Below are positions 2,728 to 64,000 of a DNA stretch of 64,000 bases, piece after piece (position 1 is the first letter of the stretch; each line of letters begins with the position of its first letter). This DNA comes from Nemertoderma westbladi. Its lineage: Eukaryota; Animalia; Xenacoelomorpha. Made by a program: the position numbers and the translations under genes. The stretch lies in assembly GCA_032718475.1 (NCBI GenBank), contig JAUCBJ010007809.1, forward strand, positions 22,115-86,114, in the 5' to 3' direction. The notes beneath the pieces were generated by a model, which did no database searches, was not told where the DNA came from, and saw only the letters and a list, made by a program, of their open reading frames with translations.

Positions 2728-5322
2728 TGATGAATTATTTCACTATAAGATAGCATTTATACTTTAACTTTAACGTAAAAACTTTCGAAAATCCGACGCA
2801 TTTGAGTAAGTTACAGTAATGTAATATGCCTATTCATATTTGTACACATAAAACCCCTAGTTACTCTCGTGGCATAGTGGTCAACGATGAGCATGGTCAT
2901 CGAACGATGAGCAGGGCCAATCATAGGGCATAGAACATCTTATTGCTCCAATGTGAGGCTATGGAAAATTCTGTTTGGATTCCATGTCCCTATGGAAAAT
3001 TCTGTTTGGATTCCATATCCAAGATTTAGTGTATATAAAGGCTGGTTTGCCTTCGGTTATCACCTTGCACTAATCATTCGGCCCCATTCTGTCGTTTTTA
3101 GTTTCTTGTTGAAACTATTTGTAAATCTGTTTGATAAATCTTTTGCTAAACTGTAAATACACTGTCAACTTCTGAACATGTTTTTCTTTGGTCCAACTTT
3201 GGGACAGCCAAACATCGGGAAGATGGCCGCCTAGACCATTAGGCTGTCAGCAACGCAGGGAAAGAATGTCCACAACACGCTAGCGCCCACATTAGGTTAG
3301 ACCGCGCACCCCCTTCGCCCTACGAAATGCTCAACTTGCCATGCAGCGCCCGCTTTATGAGGAAGGTAAGACTTTGTTCGACGCCCTTGCCCGACGTAAG
3401 ACCTATAGATCAGGGTAAGCGTGACGCAGTTCTGGGACGCCGCAAAATTTAGGATCAAATAACGAAGTTCTAAAGGCAGAACCCCTTTGTCAGTCCTGCA
3501 AATCCCTGGGTTACCTGTATACCTCACAGGTGCGAGCTATTGCCGTTCGTCAGTGCGCAAGTACATATTAGGTACGGACAGCATACGTTCCATAATTTAG
3601 TGATTTGTTAGTACTGACTGTTTGGTACCGGTTCGCTTTGTGGAACATACATTAGTACACCCCCCCCCCCCCCCTGCTGAAGTTAGTTATTTGATCAGGC
3701 AAGGAGTATTTCTGCACACCGCTTGGCCTAGGGAGGTTTTATTAATATCCTACCGCGCCTTGCCACGTACTGATAGGTATTTGCTGCTAACTACCGCAGC
3801 AACAAAGTTCTAGAATCAAATTTGTATACCAGAACAGCTAGCGTACGGTAGCAATTAACCCCTATTTCTTATCTTACAACCAGAATCTGGTATTTGTGCC
3901 AATCACGGGTGTAGTTACTAACACCGTGGTTGCCCAGTTGAGTTGTGGATAGGAAGGAGAGAGCTTTGACGTCATTTGCAAGTATAAAGTTCTACACGAA
4001 GTGGGGACTTCGCGCAGCACGAAGTTGGCAGAGCCTTAGCGAATTGACACTGTTAGGGGGTAGGTCAATTTATGCAAATAGTCACGTTGGCCCTCTAGCG
4101 GCAGACTGGAGAACTGCAGATGGATTCGCTTCCTTTGAAAGTCACAGCTAATGGTCTAATACATATCTGCCAAGTTTCAGCTTAAACGGATTAAAAGCAA
4201 AGAAATGGGAGGGCATTTAATGTTTAGACATGTGGCCCTCTAGCGGGAGACCATTGCACTGATGGTGTCTGAAAGTCTCTCAAAAATCTCAACTTTTGCT
4301 CATATTGATACCTACAAATTTTTAACTTGGCAGCTTTAAATCCGACAAAGTTATTAGCATGTCAAAATCGTAACGACGACGACAACGACGACGACAACGA
4401 CGACGACGACGACAACGACGACGACAACTATTTGCATAAATTGACCCACCCCCTAACAGTGTCAATTCGCTAAGGCTCCGCCAACTTCGTGGCTCGCCCC
4501 ACAAAACGCGACTAGCTTATTTTCGTAGCTAGCGCACGGTATTGTTTTGGTCAGAGAATTACTAAAACCTAGTAAATGATATACACCAAAATTGTTTTAT
4601 TGTAACACACCCACACACACACGCCCTAAAACATATTTACCCTTAGAGTTCTACTAGTTATAGCGCATTTTAGGTTACTTTAGGCAGAATTTATTTGTAC
4701 TTTACTATTCGTATTTGTAAAATTAGGATCAGATATTTAGTTACGGCAAGGGAGTATTTCATTATTTCGTTATTAAACTGTTGTTTGCCTAGAGCAGCAG
4801 TATTGTTACATTAGGCACGACCCATTTTAGACTGATTCAGACAGGGAGATCAGTATTGTAACACTACGCCTGTAACCCACCTAGCTCGTATATAAACCAT
4901 ATAAATCACACCGCGGCAAGTTGCGGTATTTAGGGCTGTCAGCGATAGTTAGGATTCACTGCGCGGGGATTGTTTTCCCGTGAGTTTGGTCTGTTACTGT
5001 AACTGTACATCTGCCATACTGGTATCCTTTTGTCTAGTTCGTAGGTATTAGACCCGCTCACGTACATAGAATAGACACCAGGCTCTGCTCCTCGCCAGTA
5101 GTAGTTTGTGTATTGTATCTGTTTGTTTAGATATCCTGGACTGGGATTTGTTGTCAGATACTGTACGAACCCGTTTCATTACTAGAGTCTTACAGTAAGA
5201 TACATAGTTACTAGGATCTGGTAAGCGGTATACTACTGGACTTTATGGTTAGAGATATTCTATAGCTTCATATTAGTAGATTTGTAGGCCATAGGGTAGT
5301 CCCTACCGTAGAGGACACAACA
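2728..5322. mobile_element. Probable solo LTR (~2.1 kb plus a nested 0.5-kb element)
   Basis: TG...CA termini, 5-bp TSD GTTTC (2723-2727 and 5323-5327) in the satellite, and no convincing ORF. Confidence 0.8.
4001..4502 (-). mobile_element. Non-autonomous inverted-repeat element, possibly Helentron-associated (HINE/DINE-1-like)
   Basis: ~65-bp subterminal inverted arms (~4018-4082 and ~4427-4491), (CGA/CAA)n microsatellite at 4372-4428, small hairpin ACTTCG..CGAAGT at one end, A-runs on both flanks, no clear TSD. Confidence 0.55.
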
Positions 5323-6964: not shown

Positions 6965-8250
6965 TGTTCGCGCTTTTAAGACCTTTGGCAGTTTAACCCG
7001 CCAAATCTATATGTCTTCTAGGTTATAAATCTACTCCAGCCTATGACAAGTATTGAACACCTATAATAATTCTAACATTAGCCGAAGCCAGTCTGTGCGC
7101 GACCATTCACCCGCTGGATATACCCGGGAGACTGGATTCGGATGCTTTAATTTGATTGCGGTGCAGGCCTACCGTATTATTCGATTGATGATCGTTAATA
7201 TAATTCCTGACAAATATCATTCACTTTCGGGAAATATTAGCAGTTCCTTTAGGACGTGGCGCTCTATCTATATAAATAGAGCTATGGCTTACACTAAACA
7301 CAACGGTATGTCTTATAGATCACCAAAGTGCATTCTTTAGGAAATGCTTTGTTACTCGGTCAAGCGCACACAGACTATTGCACACAACTGCACACTGAAT
7401 TGCCGATATTCACTGATTTTAATCATATATAAAGAGAATAACAACCGACATTTGTAGGGCCTATTAGGTAGCATTGAATTCACTACAAACCACGATAATG
7501 TATGTCGCAAATTGTTATATGTAACCGGTCTCTCTAACCTTAGTGTATCAAGAAGATTGGGTTTTCGGATCGTTATCAATATTCTTCCCAATAATAATAT
7601 GTAAACGAACGATACAATTAACAACACAGTAAATAGCAGTAAATAATGCGGCGAAAAGCAGTTTACGTCAGGGTGCTTAATCAGGTGCCTGACAAGCAAG
7701 TACTGAGGTACCGAGTACCGAGTAGCAGGACCAGGTAGTCGTATATGCCCCGACCAAGTGTACTCAACCAAGATAACAGTTTGATGATCTTATAATTAAA
7801 GACGCTCTAATGTTAGGAAACATTCCACAGCCGGTGTTCTAGGCGTGGTGGAAACGTCAGTACTGAATCCTGTGATTCTGCTGTACAGCTTTTACACAAA
7901 GAGGGAATCTCTGATTGGTTGAATGGCAAAAAGCTCCACGTGGACACAGCTGATAGATGTCGTCATTTGAGCTGAGCAGAACAAAGCACCAAGGCAAGGC
8001 TCCGGGCAAGCTACACGTGTAAAGCTCAGCCGTTAGCTGTCGTCATAGTAACTACACTGTTTCAAGAGGATCTAGGGCGTTGCGTCATAGAATTGCTAAT
8101 TATGTCCTCTAAAGTACACATACAGAAGAAATAGCTTTTATGTCCCCTAAAAACACCGGTACAGTAAGGAAACGGCTTTTATGTCCGTTAAAACACCTAC
8201 AGAGTACTTTACGGGAAAAATAACCAGCTAATTCCGCAAAAGCTTTTACA
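6965..8250 (-). mobile_element. Solo LTR (1286 bp), related to the LTR at 59111-60302
   Basis: TG...CA termini and TSD ATTGT (6960-6964 and 8251-8255). Both ends match the reverse complement of the 59111-60302 ends. Confidence 0.9.
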
Positions 8251-32772: not shown

Positions 32773-34358
32773 GGTAATGGTGAAAAATATCGAGACTTGC
32801 AAAATATCGAGAGTAAAAATAACGAGAGTAAAAATATCGAGAGTAAAAATAACGAGTGTTGAAAATTAACGTGATTAAAAAATATCAAGAGTAAAAATAA
32901 CGCGAGATGAAAAATATCGAAAATAACGAGTGTTGAAAAATATCGAGTGTTGAAAAATATCGAGAGTAAAAATATCGAGTGTTGAAAAATATCGAGAGTA
33001 AAAATATCTAGTGTTGAAAAATATCGAGTGTAAAAATATCGAGTGTTGAAAAATATCGAGAGTAAAAATATCGAGTGTTGAAAAATATCGAGTGTTGAAA
33101 AATATCGAGTGTAAAAATATCAAGTGTTGAAAAATATCGAGAGTAAAAAATATCGAGTGTTAAAAAATATCGAGAGTAAAAATATCGAGTGTTGAAAAAT
33201 ATCGAGAGTAAAAATATCGAGTGTTGAAAAATATCGAGTGTTGAAAAATATCGAGAGTAAAAATATCGAGAGTAAAAATATCGAGTGTTGAAAAATATCG
33301 AGAGTAAAAATATCGAGAGTAAAAATATCGAGTGTTGAAAAATATCGAGAGTAAAAATAACGAGTGTTGAAAATATCGAGTGTTGAAAAATATCGAGAGT
33401 AAAAATATCGAGTGTTGACAAATATCAAGTGTTGAAAAATATCGAGAGTAAAATGTATTGCATTTTGCTTGAGCATTTTATTTAGAATTATGGAACAATA
33501 TTGCAGTGCATGGGTTACAACAGTGCAAGTGAATGGCATTATGTATTACACCTTGGGTACCCATTTACCAGATTTATTATACTAGCTAGTTTTTGCTATT
33601 TTTTGAATAAATATTATAAAAGAAGTGCTAGCTATAAATTTTGATAAATATTATAAATATTGTTAAATATTATATTAGAACACGTACTGTATAAGCTACC
33701 AAATGTTGATAAATATTGTTGTTCTAGAACATTTTTAGTAAAAAAAATTATCATACAACCCTTATTTAAAAAAATTGTTACTATCAATATTTTTACTCTC
33801 GATATTTTTCAACATTCTATATTTTTCAACACTCGATATTTTTACTCTCGATATTTTTCAACACTCGATATTTTTCAATACTCAATATTTTTCAACACTC
33901 GATATTTTTACTCTCGATATTTTTCAACACTCGATATTTTTACTCTCGATATTTTTCAACACTCGATATTTTTACTCTCGATATTTTTCAACACTCGATA
34001 TTTTTACTCTCGATATTTTTCAACACTCGACATTTTTACTCTCGATATTTTTCAACACTCGATATTTTTACTCTCGATATTTTTCAACACTCGATATTTT
34101 TACTCTCGATATTTTTCAACACTCGATATTTTTACTCTCGATATTTTTCAACACTCGATATTTTTACTCTCGATATTTTTACTCTCGATATTTTTCAACA
34201 CTCGGTATTTTTACTCTCGATATTTTTACCCTCGATATTTTTACTCTCGATATTTTTTGAACTCTCGATATTATCGTTATTTTTCAACACTCGATGTTTT
34301 TACTCGCGTTATTTTTACTCTCGATATTTTTCATGTCTCGATATTTTTCAATATAACC
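32773..34358. mobile_element. Foldback-type non-autonomous TIR element with tandem-repeat arms (Merlin-like ends)
   Basis: Arms of 14-15-bp units (AAAAATATCGAGTGTTG / AAAAATATCGAGAGT) in inverted orientation around an AT-rich spacer. GGTAA...TAACC ends with 8-bp TSD CCTCGCTG; 6- and 10-bp registers also fit. Confidence 0.8.
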
Positions 34359-47054: not shown

Positions 47055-50000
47055 GGGGGGGGGTTCACTAATTGACCTTCAAATGTAATTTTCTTGTGGT
47101 GGTAGTTTACATTTGTCCAGTTTGTTAGATATTATGTATAACTGTGAAGGATAGATAAAATTTTTTTTTTTTTTAATTTTTTTTTCCAAATTCGAATTTT
47201 TTGCCTAATTAGCATAATTTATGCAAAAATAATTCAAAATGTAAAGGATATTTTATGGGTGGATCTCTGATGTCCAAATTTTGAGAACACATAGCCAATG
47301 GGATCCTCTACAAGTTGTATTCACAAAATTTTGATATCTTGTATCGTTCAAAAGTTATTTGGGAAAAATTAAATTTGAGCCACCAATTTGGCAATTTTAA
47401 CCAAATTTGGGTAGTTTTTGTTGAATTTTGGTGTATATTTCGGCCACTAATAACTTTAAACAAAATCTGTGAATACAAACTGTGGAGAGAAGTATTATGA
47501 TCACCCCTGCCAAATTTCAGCACCGTACGATTATTTTTGCCAAAGCCTTTGCATTTTGAAATTTAAAAAGTTGATTTCTTTTAAAACGCATTTGAAATAT
47601 GAGAAGCAAAATTTCAGTAAAAATTGTTTTTCTCAAGACAAACTTTGTTCTAACTTTTGAACGGATGGTTGGATTTTGATCATTCAAACGGTTTTAGATT
47701 CAACATTGCAAGCAGATAAGATGAAAAGCATAAAATATTAATTTGCATTACATAAAACGTGAGGGCCTCTTCTACCATTAAAATTGTCTGTCATTGCGTC
47801 CGTTCATGTGATTCCGTCCATCTGTCCGCAATTACTTACTACCTATGATCTCTACAACTATACGTCTGAGAGAGCTGGGATGTTGGCTACCCCCACTAAA
47901 CCGATGCTTGCGAAGGTTTTAGGCTATATAAAATATATTTATGAGTAGGCCTAATATATTTACAGTTTTCAAACATTTCAACTGCTGTACCTTGAGTATG
48001 AGCAACTATGCAAAAATTGCTAATATAATTTCAATGAGTTGAGTATAGGTAATACAACAACAAAACTTTCAGTTTACAACTATCAGTATACTAAAATCCT
48101 CCAGGGGAATAGTCAGCCTTGTCGGTCACAATCCGTTTCTTCGATGACGGTTTCCTTGTGGCACTCTTTCGTTGTCTCTTCATATTCTTTTCTGATACGC
48201 GTTGTTCTAGAATCCCGTCATCTTCTTCGAGATTGAGTTTTCTCAAAATGAGCTGCTCTGATGATGCCCCACGGTTGTGTTCTAACACTGTATACGCCAC
48301 GTGGAACATCAGTGTGGTCAGGCCGACAAATTTGTCCTTCGTACACCGAGTCCAAAGTCGCGAATGAAGTGACTCATTCCGGTTTTGAGTGGCACCCGGT
48401 ATGCACCGTGATATTAGATCATACGATGCAAGTCGTTCATATAATGGGAGGATATATACCAAGTCGCATTGCTTGATAATCGAGGGAGCCTTGTATTTGC
48501 GGTCGCCATTCTTATATTTACACCATTTATCAATGGGACACTTCCTGTGCCGTTTTGCAATTGAGGATCCATAGTCACAGTAGTGGTGTACTGCAGCAAC
48601 TATCTCAGTTTGAATGGTTTTTATCAGTTTATTTTTATCTCTAGCAGATATATTCTTTATATCAACTCCCTTGATGTTAGACACTACAGTGTTACGATAA
48701 TATGATGCCAGCTGGGTACATCTAACTAGTGTTAACCCACCCTTACCTCCGAGTTTATTATCTTTTCGAATCTTGGATAATCCTTTATACACTCGTTTTG
48801 AGATGTGATTTAGACACTCTCGCTTTTCTACAGTTATTGCTTCAGCCTGATACGGATTAGCTTCCAGAATACTTTTCATTACGCTACTGTCTCCATCTGA
48901 TATTATTTGAGCATATATCAAATTGTTATTTTCAACAGAGCGGTTGAAGAGCTTTACAGCCAGATAAGGCTCCATCGAACCACTAGATCCACTATAAGTA
49001 ATCCCGCAATCATGATCTGCCACATTGTCAGCAGAACAACCTGAGTTCTCAGAAGTATCTGAATCATCATCAACTGGAGAACCTGAGCTGTCAGAATCAT
49101 CTGAGTCATCATCAATAGGAGAACCTGAGCTGTCAGAATCATCTGAGTCATCATCAATAGGAGAACCTGAGCTGTCAGAATCATCTGAGTCACTAGAATC
49201 TTCAGTATTGTCATCATCATCTGTACTGTTACGTTTTCTTGAGCTGCATACGTTGCAGTACTTTGAACATACATCAAAGTCTAGGATATGTCCAGTTTCT
49301 TCCGATATTATAAAGGAAACGCCATAGAGTGACTTATGACCACGACGCATCCACGTCCCATCAAATGAAATAGCAATTTCCCTATTTGTCTCCATCAGTG
49401 CGCAGTTACGAGCATTGGCGCGGGCAATAGCAACCGTAATGTTGGAAATAGTTTTCACATGTTTCATCCAAGGCATCTTACCAATTGGTGATGGCAAACT
49501 CATGAGCCGGGAAAAGGTTTTAGCCTGTCCTTGTGTGCCCCCAACGCATAGCCAGGCCAACACGGATCGGAGGTTTATATCTGCAGTTTTTCGCCCTTTA
49601 GTTCCTACTGGTGCCGGGCATTTGTTCCCTGTGTCTAGTGTCTTTTCCCATCCACAGAAATTGCAATGTGCTTTGTAACTAGAATAATAACCGGAGCAGA
49701 TAACCGGAGAGATGGAAACATCACTTGAATCACATTTGGTATGGCTTGAAATTATCAAGTCCTTCAAACATTCCTTACTAATGAATGTGTAGCCGCTAAA
49801 TTTTCCTTGAGAAGGTATAGTTTGCAACTTAGCTGCTATCCATGATGGTTGGTGTTTCTTCGCAACTTCAGATGAATGCGTGCCAAGGAATCCTGACCGC
49901 TTTCGCTTGCCATATTTTGGCATAATATTATGGTTTCTGCAGTTCTATACAGCAGCAGACAGGCTGAATCACAGATTGTTTGTAGGCCTACTGGTACCCA

Positions 50001-56300: not shown

Positions 56301-59300
56301 GTTAATTATTGCATTACATAATAACTTTAGCTCCAGCCACTTTAGCAATACGATGAATCAATAATAAATATTCTAGAACACAGCAATATTAATAGGGAGA
56401 TAGGCTACTTATCTCTCCATGCATACAACCACAGATAGGGGGTGTTCTGACACAATCAAAATTCATTCATCTTCAGCAGAAAGACGTAGCAAATAAAAGC
56501 TGATTACTTCTATAAATGTAAGTGTTACCTGTTCTTTTGACTTTCATTTAAGATTCTCTATCTCATGGAGTGGGTTGGAAGATATAAATAAGAAAATCGA
56601 TATAGTTTTTAAAAAAAATATGAGGATATTTTTATAAATTATTACAGAAAAACACCAAGTATTATGACATGGCTTTAATACTTCATTATGTTGATGAAAT
56701 AGCTGTGATATTTGAGGTGAATTATTGCATTACATAATAACTTTAGCTCCATCCACTTTAGCAATACGATGAAACTATAATAAATATTCTAGAACACAAC
56801 AATATTAACCGGGAGATAGGCTACTTATTTCTCCACTCATACAGCCACAGATAGGGGGTGTTCAAAAGCAATCAAAATTCATCCATCTCCAGCGGAAAGA
56901 CGTAGCAAATAACAGCTGATTACTGCTATAAATGTAAGTGTTACCTGTTCTTTTGACGTTCATTTAAGATTATCTATCTCGTGGAGTGGGATAGAAGTTA
57001 TAAATATGAAATAATTAATTCATCTTCAGGGGAAAGACGTAGCAAATAACAGCTGATTACTTCTATAAATGTAAGTGTTACCTGTTCTTTTGACTTACAT
57101 TTAAGATTCTCTATCTCTTGGAGTGGGTTAGAAGTTATAAATATGAAAATCGATATGGTTATAGTAAAGAATCAGACGATATTTTGATAAATTATTGCAG
57201 AAAAATACCAAGGATTTTGACATGGCTTTAATACTTCATTATGTTCATGAAATAGCTGAGATATTTGAGGTGAATTATTGTATTATGAGTTAACTTCAGC
57301 TCCAGTCACTTTGGCAATACGATGAAACTATAAAACATATTCAAGAACACAACAATATTAATAGGGAGATAGGATACTTATCTCTCCACTCATACAACCA
57401 CAGATAGGGGGTGTTCTGACACAATCAAAATTCATTCATCTCCAGCGGAAATACGTAGCATATAACAGCTGATTACTGCTATAAATGTAAGTGTTACCTG
57501 TTCTTTTGACTTTCATTTAAGATTCTCTATCTCGTGGAGTGGGTTAGAAGTTATAAATATGAAAATCGATATGGTTTTAGTAAAGAATCAGAGGATATTT
57601 TGATAAATTATTGCAGAAAAATACCAAGGATTTTGACATGGCTTTAATACTTCATTATGTTCATGAAATAGCTGAGATATTTTAGGTGAATTATTGTATT
57701 ATGAGTTAACTTCAGCTTCAGTCACTTTGGCAATGCGAAGAAACTATAAAAAATATTCTAGAACACAACAATATTAATAGGGAGATAGGCTACTTATATC
57801 TCCACTCAGAAAGCCACAGATAGGGGGTGTTCTGACACAATCAAAATTCATACATCTCCAGCGGAAAGACGTAGCAAATAACAGCTGATTACTTCTATAA
57901 ATGTAAGTGTTACCTGTTCTTTTGACGTTCATTTAAGATTATCTATCTCGTGGAGTGGGATAGAAGTTATAAATATGAAATTCGATATGGTTTTTGAAAA
58001 AAATCAGAGGATATTTTGATAAATTATTGCAGAAAAACACCAGTGATTTTGACATGGCTTTAATACTTCATTATGTTCATGAAATAGCTGAGATATTTGA
58101 GGTGAATTATTGCATTACATAATAACTTTAGATCCAGCCACTTTAGCAATACGATAAAACAATAATAAATATTCTATAACACAACAATATTAATAGGGAG
58201 ATAGGCTACTTATCTCCCCACTCATACAACCACAGTTAGGGGGTGTCCCGACACAATCAAAATTCATTCATCTTCAGCGGAAAGACGTAGCAAATAACAG
58301 CTGATTACTTCTATAAATGTAAGTGTTACCTGTTCTTTTGATTTCATTTAAGATTTTCTATCTCGTGGAGTGGGTTAGAAGATATAAATAAGAAAATCGA
58401 TATGGTTTTTGAAAAAAAAACAGAGGATATTTTGATAAATTATTGCAGAAAAACACCAATAATTTTGACATGGCTTTAATACTTCATTATGTTCATAAAT
58501 AGCTGAGATATTTGAGGTGAATTATTGCATTACATAATAACTTTAGCTCCAGTCACTTTGGCAATACGATGAAACTATAATAAATATTCTAGAACACAAC
58601 AATATTAATAGGGAGATAGGCTACTTATCTCTCCACTCAGAAAGCCACAGATAGGGGGTGTTCTGACACAATCAAAAGTCATTCATCTTCAGCGGAAAGA
58701 CATAGCATATAACAGCTGATAACTGCTATAAATTAAGTGTTACCTGTTCGTTTGACTTTCATTTAAGATAAGATTCTCTATCACGTGGAGTGGGTTAGAA
58801 GTTATAAATATTAAAATCGATATGGTTATAGTAAAGAATCAGAGGATATTTTGATAAATTATTGCAGAAAAATACCAAGGATTTTGACATGGCTTTAATA
58901 CTTCATTATGTTCATGAAATAGCTGAGATATTTGAGGTGAATTATTGTATTATGAGTTAACTTCAGCTCCAGTCACTTTGGCAATAATACGATGAAACTA
59001 AAAAAATATTCTAGAACACAACAATATTAATAGGGAGATAGGCTACTTATCTGTCCACTCAGAAAGCCACAGATAGGGGGTGTTCTGACACAATCAAAAT
59101 TCATCCATCTTGTAAAAGCTTTTGTGGGATAACTGATTCGTTTGCCTTGTTGGCCAGTTCCCCCCCAGTCGCTAAGAATACTCTCAAAGTGATCTATAGT
59201 TAAAAATAGTGCAAGTTACCAGCTTATTGGCTGATTTGCTGTACGCAGGCATCTGGGCTCTGTTTAATCGGCCAACAAGCCTAGGGAGGTTGCGTCATAG

Positions 59301-60639
59301 CCTTGTTTTTGTATCTCCCAATAGAATTTGAGTCAGCCTTGATTTTGACCTATCACAGAGCTGCTGAACTGAAAATTTCCTATCTCACTGCTCTTTCTCT
59401 GTGTTGAACGGGAGCTTCGTGGAATAAGGGAGTTGGTATCCTCGTATAGAGCAGTAGTCACGAGTTTTTCAAAGCCACGAAAGAACGGCTTTTTAGAGTT
59501 TTATGTTTTCTGCTTTTTAGCGCAACACTAGTAGGTTTAATTATAAGGACATATATCCTTTAACTGCACCTCGCATTTAACTCGCATTTGACACACCATA
59601 GTCACGGCCTTTAATAACTGGCTTTGTGAGTACTGCATACTGCTATTTGTTGTCGGTTATTCATTATATTTGTTGATGAATTATTATATTGGAATAACGA
59701 GAAATAACCCCGACACCCAATATTCTTGATATACCGAAGGTAAGAGAGAAAGGTTACAGATAAACGATTGTGACTTATGTTAAAGTGGTTTGAAGTGAAT
59801 CTAATGTTATTTGATAGACCCTACATGAGTCAGTCTGTGTTCCTTTTATATGTGACTAAAATCAGTGAAGATCGGCAGATTAGTGTGCAGTATTGTGCAG
59901 CATTGTGTATGAGTGAGTCTGTTAAAGAAGCATTCCTAAAGAATGCGCCATATATGTGAATTATAATTAAGCCATATCGTTGTGAGTAGTTTAAGTCATA
60001 ACTCTGTTTATGTAGATAAAGCGCCACGTCCTAAAGGAACTGTTAATATTACCGAAGGTGAATAATATTGTCAGAGATTATATAATACTGTCAGTCGAAT
60101 AATACATTAGGCTTACATAGCAATAAAATTAAACCGTCGAACCCAATCTCCCGGGAATATCCAGCGGGTGAATGGTCGCGCACGGATTGGTTTCGACTAG
60201 TGTAGTGAATCAAATACTTGTCATAGGCTAAAAAGCGATTTAATATCTAGAAGACATCTTAATTTGGCGGGTTAAACTGCCAAAGGTCTGAAAGCGCGAA
60301 CATTAAAGGATATAGCTTCTTTGTTGCAGTAAGCAATAAAGTTGAAAGTACCGGTCAACCGGTAAACCTGAATCGGTACATCTGTAGGTCAGTAGGCCCA
60401 ACCGCTAGAACCGGTACTTCTGTAGGTCCGTAGGCCTAACTGTCCTAACCGGTACTTCCCGTATAAGTACATTAGTATTATTCGATTTGATTGTTGTATA
60501 CCGGTAGGTCTTAGTATTTAATCAGGGAACGGCCGCCCTGGTTTTTTATTGAGATTTTACTTATTTCTGTCAAGTTTTATTTGTTTGTAGGCCAGTATTG
60601 AACAGAAGGCGTGTAAACCTGATCAGATTGTACAGACGA

Positions 60640-61210
60640 TTTGTAGGCTGAACTGTTGTCTGATTGCTGTTAGGTCCGAACGAATTGCAGTGTGTGTAGA
60701 TCACCTGTCCGATTAAGTACGATTAGGCAGTAGGGGCAGCGAACGCTGTAAGGTAAACCCCCAACTAAAGAATAAGTCGCACTACTGGGTTAGAGCGCAT
60801 ACTCCCTAATCATTTCGGAGTCTGCATGTCCTGTAGTTTATTTAGGCTTGAGAGTAGTCTGCCATCGTTTAGTCTGTACTTTGTTTGTGTAAGTCTGTAC
60901 GGGTAGCGTATAATTTTATTTAGATAATTTGTAGGCTGGATAGTTGTCTGGCTGTTATTAGGTCTGAGCGGATTGCCGCGTGTGTAGATCATCTGTCCGA
61001 TTAAGTACGGTTAGGCAGTAGGGGCAGCGAACGCTGTAAGGTAAACCCCCAACTAAAGAATAAGTCGCACTACTGGGTTAGAGCGCATACTCCCTAATCA
61101 TTTCGGAGTCTGCATATACCGTAGTTTGTTTAGGCTTGATAGTAGTCTGTCAGTGTTCGGTCTGTATTTTGTTTGAGTAGTTTGTACGCGTAGCGTAATA
61201 TTTATTATTC
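60640..61210 (+). repeat. ~288-bp tandem duplication in the leader
   Basis: CCAACTAAAGAATAAGTCGCACTACTGGG at 60761 and 61049. Confidence 0.9.
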
Positions 61211-62139
61211 AGAGTTTATGCGATTATTCGCAACATTCATTCCCCAAGTTTATTCCTACAGTAATTGTGTTTGTTATACATACCGCTATAGTTAAATTAA
61301 CCCCGGTACTACACGGGCTGCTTGGCGTAGGTAAAGACTGGTGATTTTGTGCATCGGTCACTCCAGCAGATGCCGTGGTTCTTTTAGCTGTTCAAGTATA
61401 TCTAACTACTGATTATATGTTGTACAAGTACTCGTACCTAATTTAGGGTTTAGTGTACAGTACTTTCCGAAGTAATTATTGTAGACATTATATCTGTGTT
61501 GTAAAGTGGTTGATAGGCACATTCGATTAGCTCTATTAACTTCTAGGTAGGAACACTCCGTGATACATAACGTAGAACCTATAGCGATACGGCTATAGGT
61601 CGTCAGGCGGTGGTATTTTCCTATCTAGACAACGCAGTGTATTTACTACTACTTATTATTTCAAATACTGTAGTACCCTGTCCGTTGTAATAACCGGTTA
61701 TCTAACCCTTTGTTAGGCTGGTTTGTAGACTTCTTGTAAAATTACCCTAAAAATTCGTATTTTGTGTTTTTTTGTAAATTTTTGTGTTTATTTAGAGATT
61801 GTAATCTCACCCGAATTGTACGTAATTTGTGGCATTAAGTAACTTAGGTAAATTAGTATTATTTGTTTTAGTGTCCTATAAGTAACACTTCATTGAAAGC
61901 GCACCGCTTTGTGTAGTGATTACTCCCCAGAAATAATAACATTTATTTCAAACATTGACTAAACCCATTAAAACGGGTATATATATATTATAAATCAAAT
62001 CTAACGATTTATAAATAGTAGGCCTACCATATAACAATTAGGTCTCCATATCAGTTGGACTACTGCTCAAATAACGGTAATAAAGTAAGTAAAGTAACAA
62101 AGTAACCCTAAAGTAACAGAAATTCAATTATTTGAAATA

Positions 62140-62400
62140 ATTGATATACCGGTATTTACGATAGGCCTATTATCTTTATTTCTATAAATCTAGGCTGAAA
62201 TTATACCGGTATTTGTAATTAATTCTATTTCAGAATTATATATCCTACAAACTGTAAGCTGTATACCGGTATTCCAGATAGGCCTATTATATATTTATAT
62301 ATATTGGTGCTAAAATTATACCGGTATTCTGTGATAAACCTAGTCTGTAATAATACTTATATACTTATATATACTATAAGTATACCGGTATTCTAATATA
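62140..62400 (+). repeat. Degenerate ~60-bp repeats with palindromic core ATACCGGTAT
   Basis: Five copies of ATACCGGTATT just upstream of the ORF. Confidence 0.75.
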
Positions 62401-62511
62401 TTATATATACCACGCTGCATTGAGTAGCAATACTGGTAATTAATTATTAGGCTAACAGTTAATACTGAGTTACTAGACTTACTCAGACTGTAATACAGCA
62501 GTAGACATTCA

Positions 62512-64000
62512 ATGGTATACATAGTCATGTCTGATACTAAGCAGAACCTGTCAGACAGTATATTAGATGTAACTATCTGCGACTCAGATAGAGACGTACA
62601 ACCGTCTAGTCGTAAATTCAGTTCACCTCCCACTGTGAGGAAGGTCATCCCTCCAGTAGTAATAACAGAACCTAGGCTAGTCCAACATCGTAGGTCTATC
62701 ATAGGCACTCGAGCTCAGGTCAAGCGGTACCAAGAAGCAGCGGAACAGCAACAACCCGCGAGTCAAGAACTTATTCCTCAGCGGCCCAGCAGCTCCAGTA
62801 GTGAGGATACGGTAGAGCTGACACCCGAGCGCGGAGCAGAGATGACGGATGCGGTTTATACGGATCCCCTTCTCATCCTTCCTGCAGCCGTACTCACTAG
62901 GTTATTGATCGCGGTGGAAGAACACCAGATCGATTGGGCGAGGAGTCAACGATCAACTAGAGATAGTTATGCGGGGTACACGAGGGAAGAATTGAAGTCT
63001 ATTGTCGAGTCGCAATGGAACTTCCCCGGACCCGGACTCCCGTTTGATTTATCAGAAGCTGCCTGGGAAGACATACACCGTATGGGAGTAGCCAAAGAAA
63101 CCATCGATCCAGCTGTATGGAAGAGGTCCGCAGCCGGATACGCACAGGGATTCTTCAGCTCTATGGAGCGAGTAGAAAGACAACTGTTTAAACAACCTCA
63201 AGGACCTCAAGAGCAGGGATCGCTGCTTTATCAAGTTAGAGAAAGAGTTCTACGAATTAGGCTAATATTATCGGCCTTTGAGGAGGCTTCTAAACGAAGA
63301 CAAGACACGTCGTTGCAAGTCGCCGTAAAGACTTGGTTTCAAAGGGTGAATCTCCAGGTTCAAGGAACAGCTCAGTGGAAAGCTCAGCTGGAGGAGCGAT
63401 CAACCCATGGAGAATCAACAGACGCTACTTTTTCCCAAGTGGAAAGTGAAGCGACGGCAGAGAAACCGCATAAGAGGGATGCCATTGACATCTATCTGTC
63501 AGACTATCAACGTTTTTTAGGTGATGACGAGTTGAGGAGAAGGTTAGAGGGACTTAGCCCTAATAGCGAAGGAACCAAGCTTGTGTTGGATGCCATCGAT
63601 GTGGAAATGAAGGCTGCGAATCAGGCTAAATTTGATGAACAACTCCGCCTGACACGAGTCCAAGAAGAACAAGTAAAGAAAAAACGTATAGAAGACAGAA
63701 AGAAAGCAGCAGTGGTAGCTGCAGAAGCAGAAAGAAAAGTGGCAGCGGCAGAGGCAGCAGCAGAGGCAAAAGCGGCAACGGCAGCGGCAGAGGCAAAGGC
63801 GGCAGAGGCAGCGGCAGAGGCAAAGGCGGCAGAGGCAGCGGCAGAAGCAAAGGCGACCTTGGCAGAAGCAGCAGCTGAAAGAAAGGCGGCAGAGGCAGTG
63901 GCAGAAGCAGAACGGAGAGCGACTGAAGAAACCACCCAGTTAGAATTGGAAAACATTCAGGAGAATCAAGACTGCATAAATAAACAGTTAACGGCTAGCA
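62512..64000 (+). CDS. Long ORF, probable Gag/polyprotein N-terminus with an Ala/Glu/Lys helical repeat; runs off the window and is absent from the ORF track
   Basis: Manual translation from ATG 62512/62527 (MSDTKQNLSDSILDV...) shows no stop for ~495 codons; (AAAEAKAAE)n at ~63720-63920. Confidence 0.8.
   Translation, partial: MVYIVMSDTKQNLSDSILDVTICDSDRDVQPSSRKFSSPPTVRKVIPPVVITEPRLVQHRRSIIGTRAQVKRYQEAAEQQQPASQELIPQRPSSSSSEDTVELTPERGAEMTDAVYTDPLLILPAAVLTRLLIAVEEHQIDWARSQRSTRDSYAGYTREELKSIVESQWNFPGPGLPFDLSEAAWEDIHRMGVAKETIDPAVWKRSAAGYAQGFFSSMERVERQLFKQPQGPQEQGSLLYQVRERVLRIRLILSAFEEASKRRQDTSLQVAVKTWFQRVNLQVQGTAQWKAQLEERSTHGESTDATFSQVESEATAEKPHKRDAIDIYLSDYQRFLGDDELRRRLEGLSPNSEGTKLVLDAIDVEMKAANQAKFDEQLRLTRVQEEQVKKKRIEDRKKAAVVAAEAERKVAAAEAAAEAKAATAAAEAKAAEAAAEAKAAEAAAEAKATLAEAAAERKAAEAVAEAERRATEETTQLELENIQENQDCINKQLTAS

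Follow-up and report, generated by a model that had tools for sequence, protein, structure and literature searches.

How would an LTR retrotransposon start reverse transcription when the position directly behind its 5′ LTR carries no TGG and instead mirrors a piece of the LTR itself? The question is raised by an element near the end of the window, that is, the whole 64,000-nt stretch of Nemertoderma westbladi DNA analysed here. Inserted in a 416-bp satellite array, its 1192-bp 5′ LTR (59111-60302, plus strand, TGT...ACA) is followed directly by TTAAAGGATATA, which occupies the primer-binding-site position (PBS; 60303-60314), the exact reverse complement of TATATCCTTTAA within the LTR (59552-59563), and each of the two 12-mers occurs only once in the window. 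We refer to this element as family A, and to the sister family of the solo LTR at 6965-8250 as family B. The initial annotation had described this match from the letters alone, and its account of the boundary stands: the LTR end at 60302 is confirmed, with the family A ends fixed from 30 sister loci (sister LTRs 94-99.7% identical), and the LTR 12-mer is preceded by a CA (59550-59551), the A of which is the predicted transcription start, and by TTTAATTATAAG (59536-59547). This last motif, a putative promoter element, is kept in family B, is common to families A and B only rather than general to the clade, and matches the window at 59536 (plus) and once more on the minus strand (7789), inside the solo LTR. 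Downstream, a candidate poly(A) signal, AATAAA + ATTAAA (60122-60133), would place the 12-mer in R; the distance from ATTAAA to the LTR end is 175 nt in family A and 187 nt in family B. A short hairpin close to the LTR end (60263-60284) is kept in sequence in family B and is seen in the folds. Behind the PBS position come a 2.2-kb leader (60315-62526), which contains a 288-bp tandem duplication (60639-61213), and the 5′ part of a gag reading frame (62527-64000), which stops at the contig end because this coincides with the end of the window; in sister copies the frame continues into DUF1759 and protease. Nothing in Rfam matched the family A LTR and leader.

The annotation had also held that such a match is unlikely by chance, and the controls bear this out. 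Within the family A LTR the 12-mer is expected 0.0003 times, a 12-nt match arose in 1 of 2000 shuffles with offsets of 0-5 permitted, and neither 100 dinucleotide-type shuffles nor 60 control windows of the 5′ UTR reached it at all. Unanchored matches of at least 10 nt are frequent in these AT-rich regions; an unanchored complement scan of the window was swamped by satellites, and on 12 elements outside resolved families it yielded many chance matches and no more than candidates. A search of the species' own genome gave at least 43 family A matches (best 40 of 5022 candidates scored), and the 30 loci examined comprised 24 5′-type LTRs and six 3′ LTRs behind a polypurine tract. The pairing is exact over 12/12 positions in 18 of the 24 5′-type copies and differs by about one base in the remaining six.

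The solo LTR of family B (minus strand, target duplication ACAAT) keeps TTTAATTATAAG and yet, as had been noted at the outset, carries a different 12-mer at the aligned position, window 7773-7784 reading ATAACAGTTTGA, with the motif CAAACTGTTAT at 7783-7773; over the 3′ part of the LTR the two families are ~75% identical. The family B search gave 62 matches, and 12 of the 30 loci examined were 5′-type. Nine of these 12 carry ATAACAGTTTG after the LTR, 11/11 complementary to CAAACTGTTAT at the aligned place, while the others comprise one with a mismatch and two starting AAAACAG. A sister PBS unrelated to its own LTR 12-mer had been named in the initial annotation as an observation that would speak against self-priming, so these nine copies fall on the side of the proposal; the PBS predicted there for the sister elements was right in its position behind 5′ LTRs and in 11 of its 12 letters, the actual reading being ATAACAGTTTGT. 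Between families A and B, six of the 11 pairs have changed on both strands of the pairing, and the motif ends 13 nt from the same CA in both. Within family B, two copies (L242, L249) combine T>G in the motif with a matching A>C in the PBS, whereas in two others (L248, L254) motif and PBS disagree at this variable position, which counts against self-priming. The pairing is thus real, flush with the LTR end, covarying across families and without TGG.

Taxonomically, the contig stops inside gag, and the classification therefore rests on sister copies, by whose domains family A is a BEL/Pao LTR retrotransposon. The sister copy C6900, whose LTRs are 99.2-99.7% and internal region 93% identical to the window copy and which is flanked by a CTACT target duplication, encodes DUF1759, protease, RT, Peptidase_A17, an integrase zinc finger and DUF5641, with E values of 1.8e-11 for the DUF1759 gag, 4.8e-36 for the Pao-type RNase H region (PF05380) and 2.7e-19 for DUF5641 after the integrase. 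Its RT was identified by the YMDD motif, a Pfam search having given no RT match, and its RNase H acidic motifs are legible; a chromodomain was not found in this copy. The gene order gag, PR, RT, RH, INT and a triple Cys-His box were read from sister-copy translations, a polypurine tract, GGGAGCGG, precedes the 3′ LTRs, and the LTRs are of the TG...CA type. The closest database proteins are distant, at ~31-38% identity among the top matches (a sea-urchin protein, for instance, at 34%), and the placement stops short of a named clade. Features in common with Belpaoviridae/Semotivirus (BEL, Pao, roo, Tas, Sinbad, Suzu) are the DUF1759 gag, three Cys-His boxes, PR-RT-RH-INT, Peptidase_A17, DUF5641, TG...CA LTRs, a 5-bp target duplication and a polypurine tract. 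The Belpaoviridae are profiled, however, as replicating by tRNA priming, with an 18-nt PBS that fits tRNA-Arg or tRNA-Gly (ICTV profile, PMC8742986), whereas family A has, as annotated, no TGG, and matches a tRNA 3′ end over at most 1 nt in a partial tRNA set; we treat the tRNA site as a described trait and not as a membership criterion, because placement rests on Pol. The annotation had cautioned that an RT of the Tf1/sushi clade would remove the novelty, and the BEL/Pao domains of C6900, with no Ty3/gypsy chromovirus-type Pol, put the element outside that clade. Its description as a second, unrelated LTR family did not survive, since both window families are BEL/Pao and fall in the same branch of the tree. 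The RT region of C6900 is itself broken by an insert of ~1.2 kb (L037:331-1570) without an Rfam match. In four of the five sister copies examined (two of A, two of B; L032-L035, L233-L236), RT, RNase H and the integrase core are absent; these four retain gag and protease in frame, differ in the pieces retained and have LTR pairs that are 99% identical.

How far the trait extends was read from a genome-wide PF05380 search, in which 150 places were listed of 4017 candidates and 70 were picked for long frames and contig room. We examined 68 of these, pairing LTRs by alignment and setting ends by eye with the sequences already seen (in C6772, one end was set without a full 3′ LTR). The result is 34 families, one representative each, including three window families; 15 of the 68 elements stayed outside resolved families, 13 of them inside the branch that holds 18 of the non-TGG families. 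Among the 22 non-TGG families, 20 have a 9-14-nt complement of the PBS in their own LTR, at offsets of 0-5 and each with its own sequence, compared with none of the 12 TGG families exceeding a 5-nt match (C8518, with TGG at offset 3, is counted among the latter). When a PBS was set against another family's LTR, 17 of 462 pairs reached at least 9 nt and six reached 10 nt. As a positive control, tRNA-Lys(ttt) is matched over 11-18 nt by seven of the 12 TGG sites; against the same partial set (24 distinct genes covering 15 anticodons, part of them probably of bacterial origin) no non-TGG site matches a tRNA 3′ end over more than 5 nt. The annotation's suggestion that self-priming may be common among satellite-dwelling elements is supported in its breadth as far as the pairing goes and fails in its setting: self-complementarity is widespread in the BEL/Pao families of this genome, and a link to satellites is rejected, with tandem-repeat flanks in 7/20 scored non-TGG families versus 4/12 TGG families. 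A single-protein query for relatives in metagenome contigs gave 119 pattern matches, none confirmed.

A second coding BEL/Pao family lies on the minus strand of the window (37200-22931), with 545-bp LTRs, an ATATT target duplication and several insertions inside. Its PBS, GTAATTGAACTC, behind the 5′ LTR at 37200-36656, pairs with 36837-36829 through nine Watson-Crick pairs, followed by one mismatch and two more pairs, and 2 of 500 shuffles reached nine or more. Both 5′ LTRs in the window therefore show the pattern that the annotation ascribed to them, the second more weakly. The gag region of this element also holds two inverted arrays of a 32-bp unit (32780-34351).

The two remaining non-TGG families, C7457 (L135) and C8897 (L103), match their PBS only across a predicted splice junction inside the LTR, whose donor reads GTGAG and whose acceptor is a pyrimidine-rich TAG (GTGAG...YAG), over 14 and 11 nt, respectively; 0/300 shuffles did so in each case. 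Under a strict junction test of all 34 families only these two pass, and a splice-junction primer sought in family A gave none. A match that spans a junction points to pairing at the RNA level, judging from the predicted splice sites. Evolutionarily, an unrooted tree of RNase H and integrase (39 rows, IQ-TREE LG+G4; the four copies lacking the RT-to-integrase domains were left out, as was a short database protein) places 18 contiguous-type families, including both coding window families, on one side of a branch (100/95), groups the two junction-type families with proteins from sea urchin, coral, abalone and fish (98/97), and separates the two groups jointly from all 12 TGG families (96/93). 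C7341 (L097), with a 10-nt self-match, stands apart among TGG families and insect proteins, and could represent chance matching, a long branch wrongly placed or a second origin. Because the trait labels were set by us and kin share traits, the tree shows clustering and not independent origins. We put at even chances a history in which a deep animal BEL/Pao branch dropped tRNA priming, one sub-branch using a contiguous cap-proximal primer free to drift and its sister, with the sea-urchin, coral, abalone and fish proteins, obtaining its primer by splicing an intron from the LTR, in which case host splicing would gate reverse transcription.

Mechanistically, the motif edge suggests where transcription may begin. 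A CA with its A no more than two bases from the 5′ edge of the motif is found in 16 of 20 families, against an expectation of 6.35 (P about 1e-5). An A occupies position −2 in 16 families and a C position −3 in 11; in family A, the A stands at −1 (59551). The initiator consensus resembles this pattern. A poly(A) hexamer is present downstream of the motif in half of the families (10/20), and the base directly after the motif, at the predicted cut site, is C in 12/20 and CG in seven. Folded from the predicted start, the RNA forms the helix in the minimum-energy structure of only 11/20 families, family A included, with a mean helix pair probability of 0.96 in family A and 0.0 in family B. This low share and the absence of the helix from the family B minimum-energy fold count against self-priming, as do the predicted loops, long at 137-758 nt across families. 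On balance, we posit that reverse transcription of family A is probably primed by the 5′ end of its own RNA, folded back as in Tf1. Transcription would start at the A of 59551, and the RNA would bend its first 13 nt over a 739-nt loop onto the PBS. RNase H of the element would then cleave behind 59563, as is established for Tf1, leaving a 3′ end from which minus-strand synthesis would run into U5, with transfer of the strand via an R region reaching ~60150. Most sister copies examined are without RT, RNase H and integrase and would therefore be copied in trans.

The same covariation would be expected if the element's own 5′ sequence acted in trans, be it on a short RNA, capped or processed, or at the end of a co-packaged genome, with neither fold-back nor an RNase H cut. 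Such a primer would sit comfortably with the long loops, with the 9/20 folds that lack the helix and with the discordant copies, but we know of no LTR element that uses an own-sequence primer in trans, and in family A the helix prevails in the fold. The geometry also equals that of Tf1 (PMC7175516); we consider this reading unlikely. A helix here could instead be a structural switch for packaging, dimerisation or long-leader translation, with priming left to a host RNA. Retroviral RNAs often have long-range helices in their leaders, the tRNA set is partial, and for one window family a 9-nt stretch in the interior of tRNA-Ala(cgc) matches. Against this, the paired strand begins 0-5 nt past the LTR end in 20/20 families and differs in sequence in each, so that some 20 different host primers would be needed, and the helix is absent in the TGG relatives; we hold a switch to be slightly less probable again. 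The 12-mer would lie in U3 if TTATAAG were a TATA box with a start near 59570, its 3′-LTR copy then pairing to circularize the genome. TATAA does stand close upstream of the motif, at −10 and −11 in the two sister families and at −12 in C170, and, if it is a TATA box, transcription would start downstream of the motif, which counts against self-priming. A TATA-like word within 60 nt upstream is nonetheless present in only 8/20 families, at scattered positions, and absent in 12/20, the CA lies at the motif's 5′ edge, and a primer cut from U3 would presumably break the template needed after strand transfer, all of which makes a U3 location distinctly improbable. Chance, or an inverted repeat left from AT-rich sequence, is suggested by the frequency of unanchored matches and is refuted by the covariation between motif and PBS, with the anchored position, the shuffles and the cross-family control also opposed, and we give it next to no weight.

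Fold-back priming has precedents outside BEL/Pao. The first 11 bases of Tf1 pair with its PBS and are removed by an RNase H cut (PMC7175516), and self-priming is listed for Tf1/sushi, Tcn1 and TAR in PMC6317226. As in Tf1/Tf2 (Schizosaccharomyces pombe), Tj1, Tf1/sushi and the plant Tcn1 clade (Ty3/gypsy), where there is no tRNA site and the PBS pairs with ~11 LTR bases, the PBS here is complementary to the element's own LTR and flush with its end, a likeness in sequence and position. The differences are that the Tf1 group is Ty3/gypsy and the present domains are those of BEL/Pao, another superfamily; that the helix here is 9-14 nt, usually with one or two unpaired bases after the predicted start, and its loop 137-758 nt; and that a junction-spanning form exists in the branch neighbouring that of family A. 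Self-priming has also been predicted from sequence outside Ty3/gypsy, in the TAR lineage, Houba and Osr-1 of plant Ty1/copia (PMC6317226), so the trait was already known to recur; TAR and Houba have the copia order, with integrase upstream of RT, and plant hosts, whereas here integrase follows RNase H. The literature searched held no report of self-priming in BEL/Pao, with subscription papers, Repbase, GyDB and supplements beyond its scope and an earlier mention possible, and the terms 'PBS' and 'tRNA' do not appear in the accessible portions of PMC554778, PMC3118150 and PMC6238403. We regard the case as likely a known mechanism in a new variant; in this genome its signature marks one entire branch of BEL/Pao, and this superfamily is described as primed by tRNA and its replication as poorly understood. 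By way of comparison, Cer7 of C. elegans reportedly has been proposed to encode its own tRNA-like primer.

If fold-back priming holds, self-priming would be present in all three LTR superfamilies, here in a branch of at least 18 families with free primer sequences, and would bear on the question, raised in PMC3601003, of whether priming by a hairpin was inherited from an ancestor or arose repeatedly. Such elements would lack the site targeted by 3′ tRNA fragments, annotation based on tRNA sites would miss them, and their transcription starts would be predicted to single-base precision.

Some further observations concern the surroundings of these elements. The satellite region of the window contains a Mutator-like transposase (PF20700, E 9.7e-47) at 48091-49944 on the minus strand. 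In C991 (L163, oriented positions 3765 and 4511), the family A 12-mer pair recurs with 746-nt spacing in other surroundings; the pol downstream of it clusters with another family. Finally, a Tyr-Gly-Thr...Trp tRNA cluster in C1846 (L204, L215), which looks bacterial in its layout, suggests that the assembly may contain a bacterial contig.
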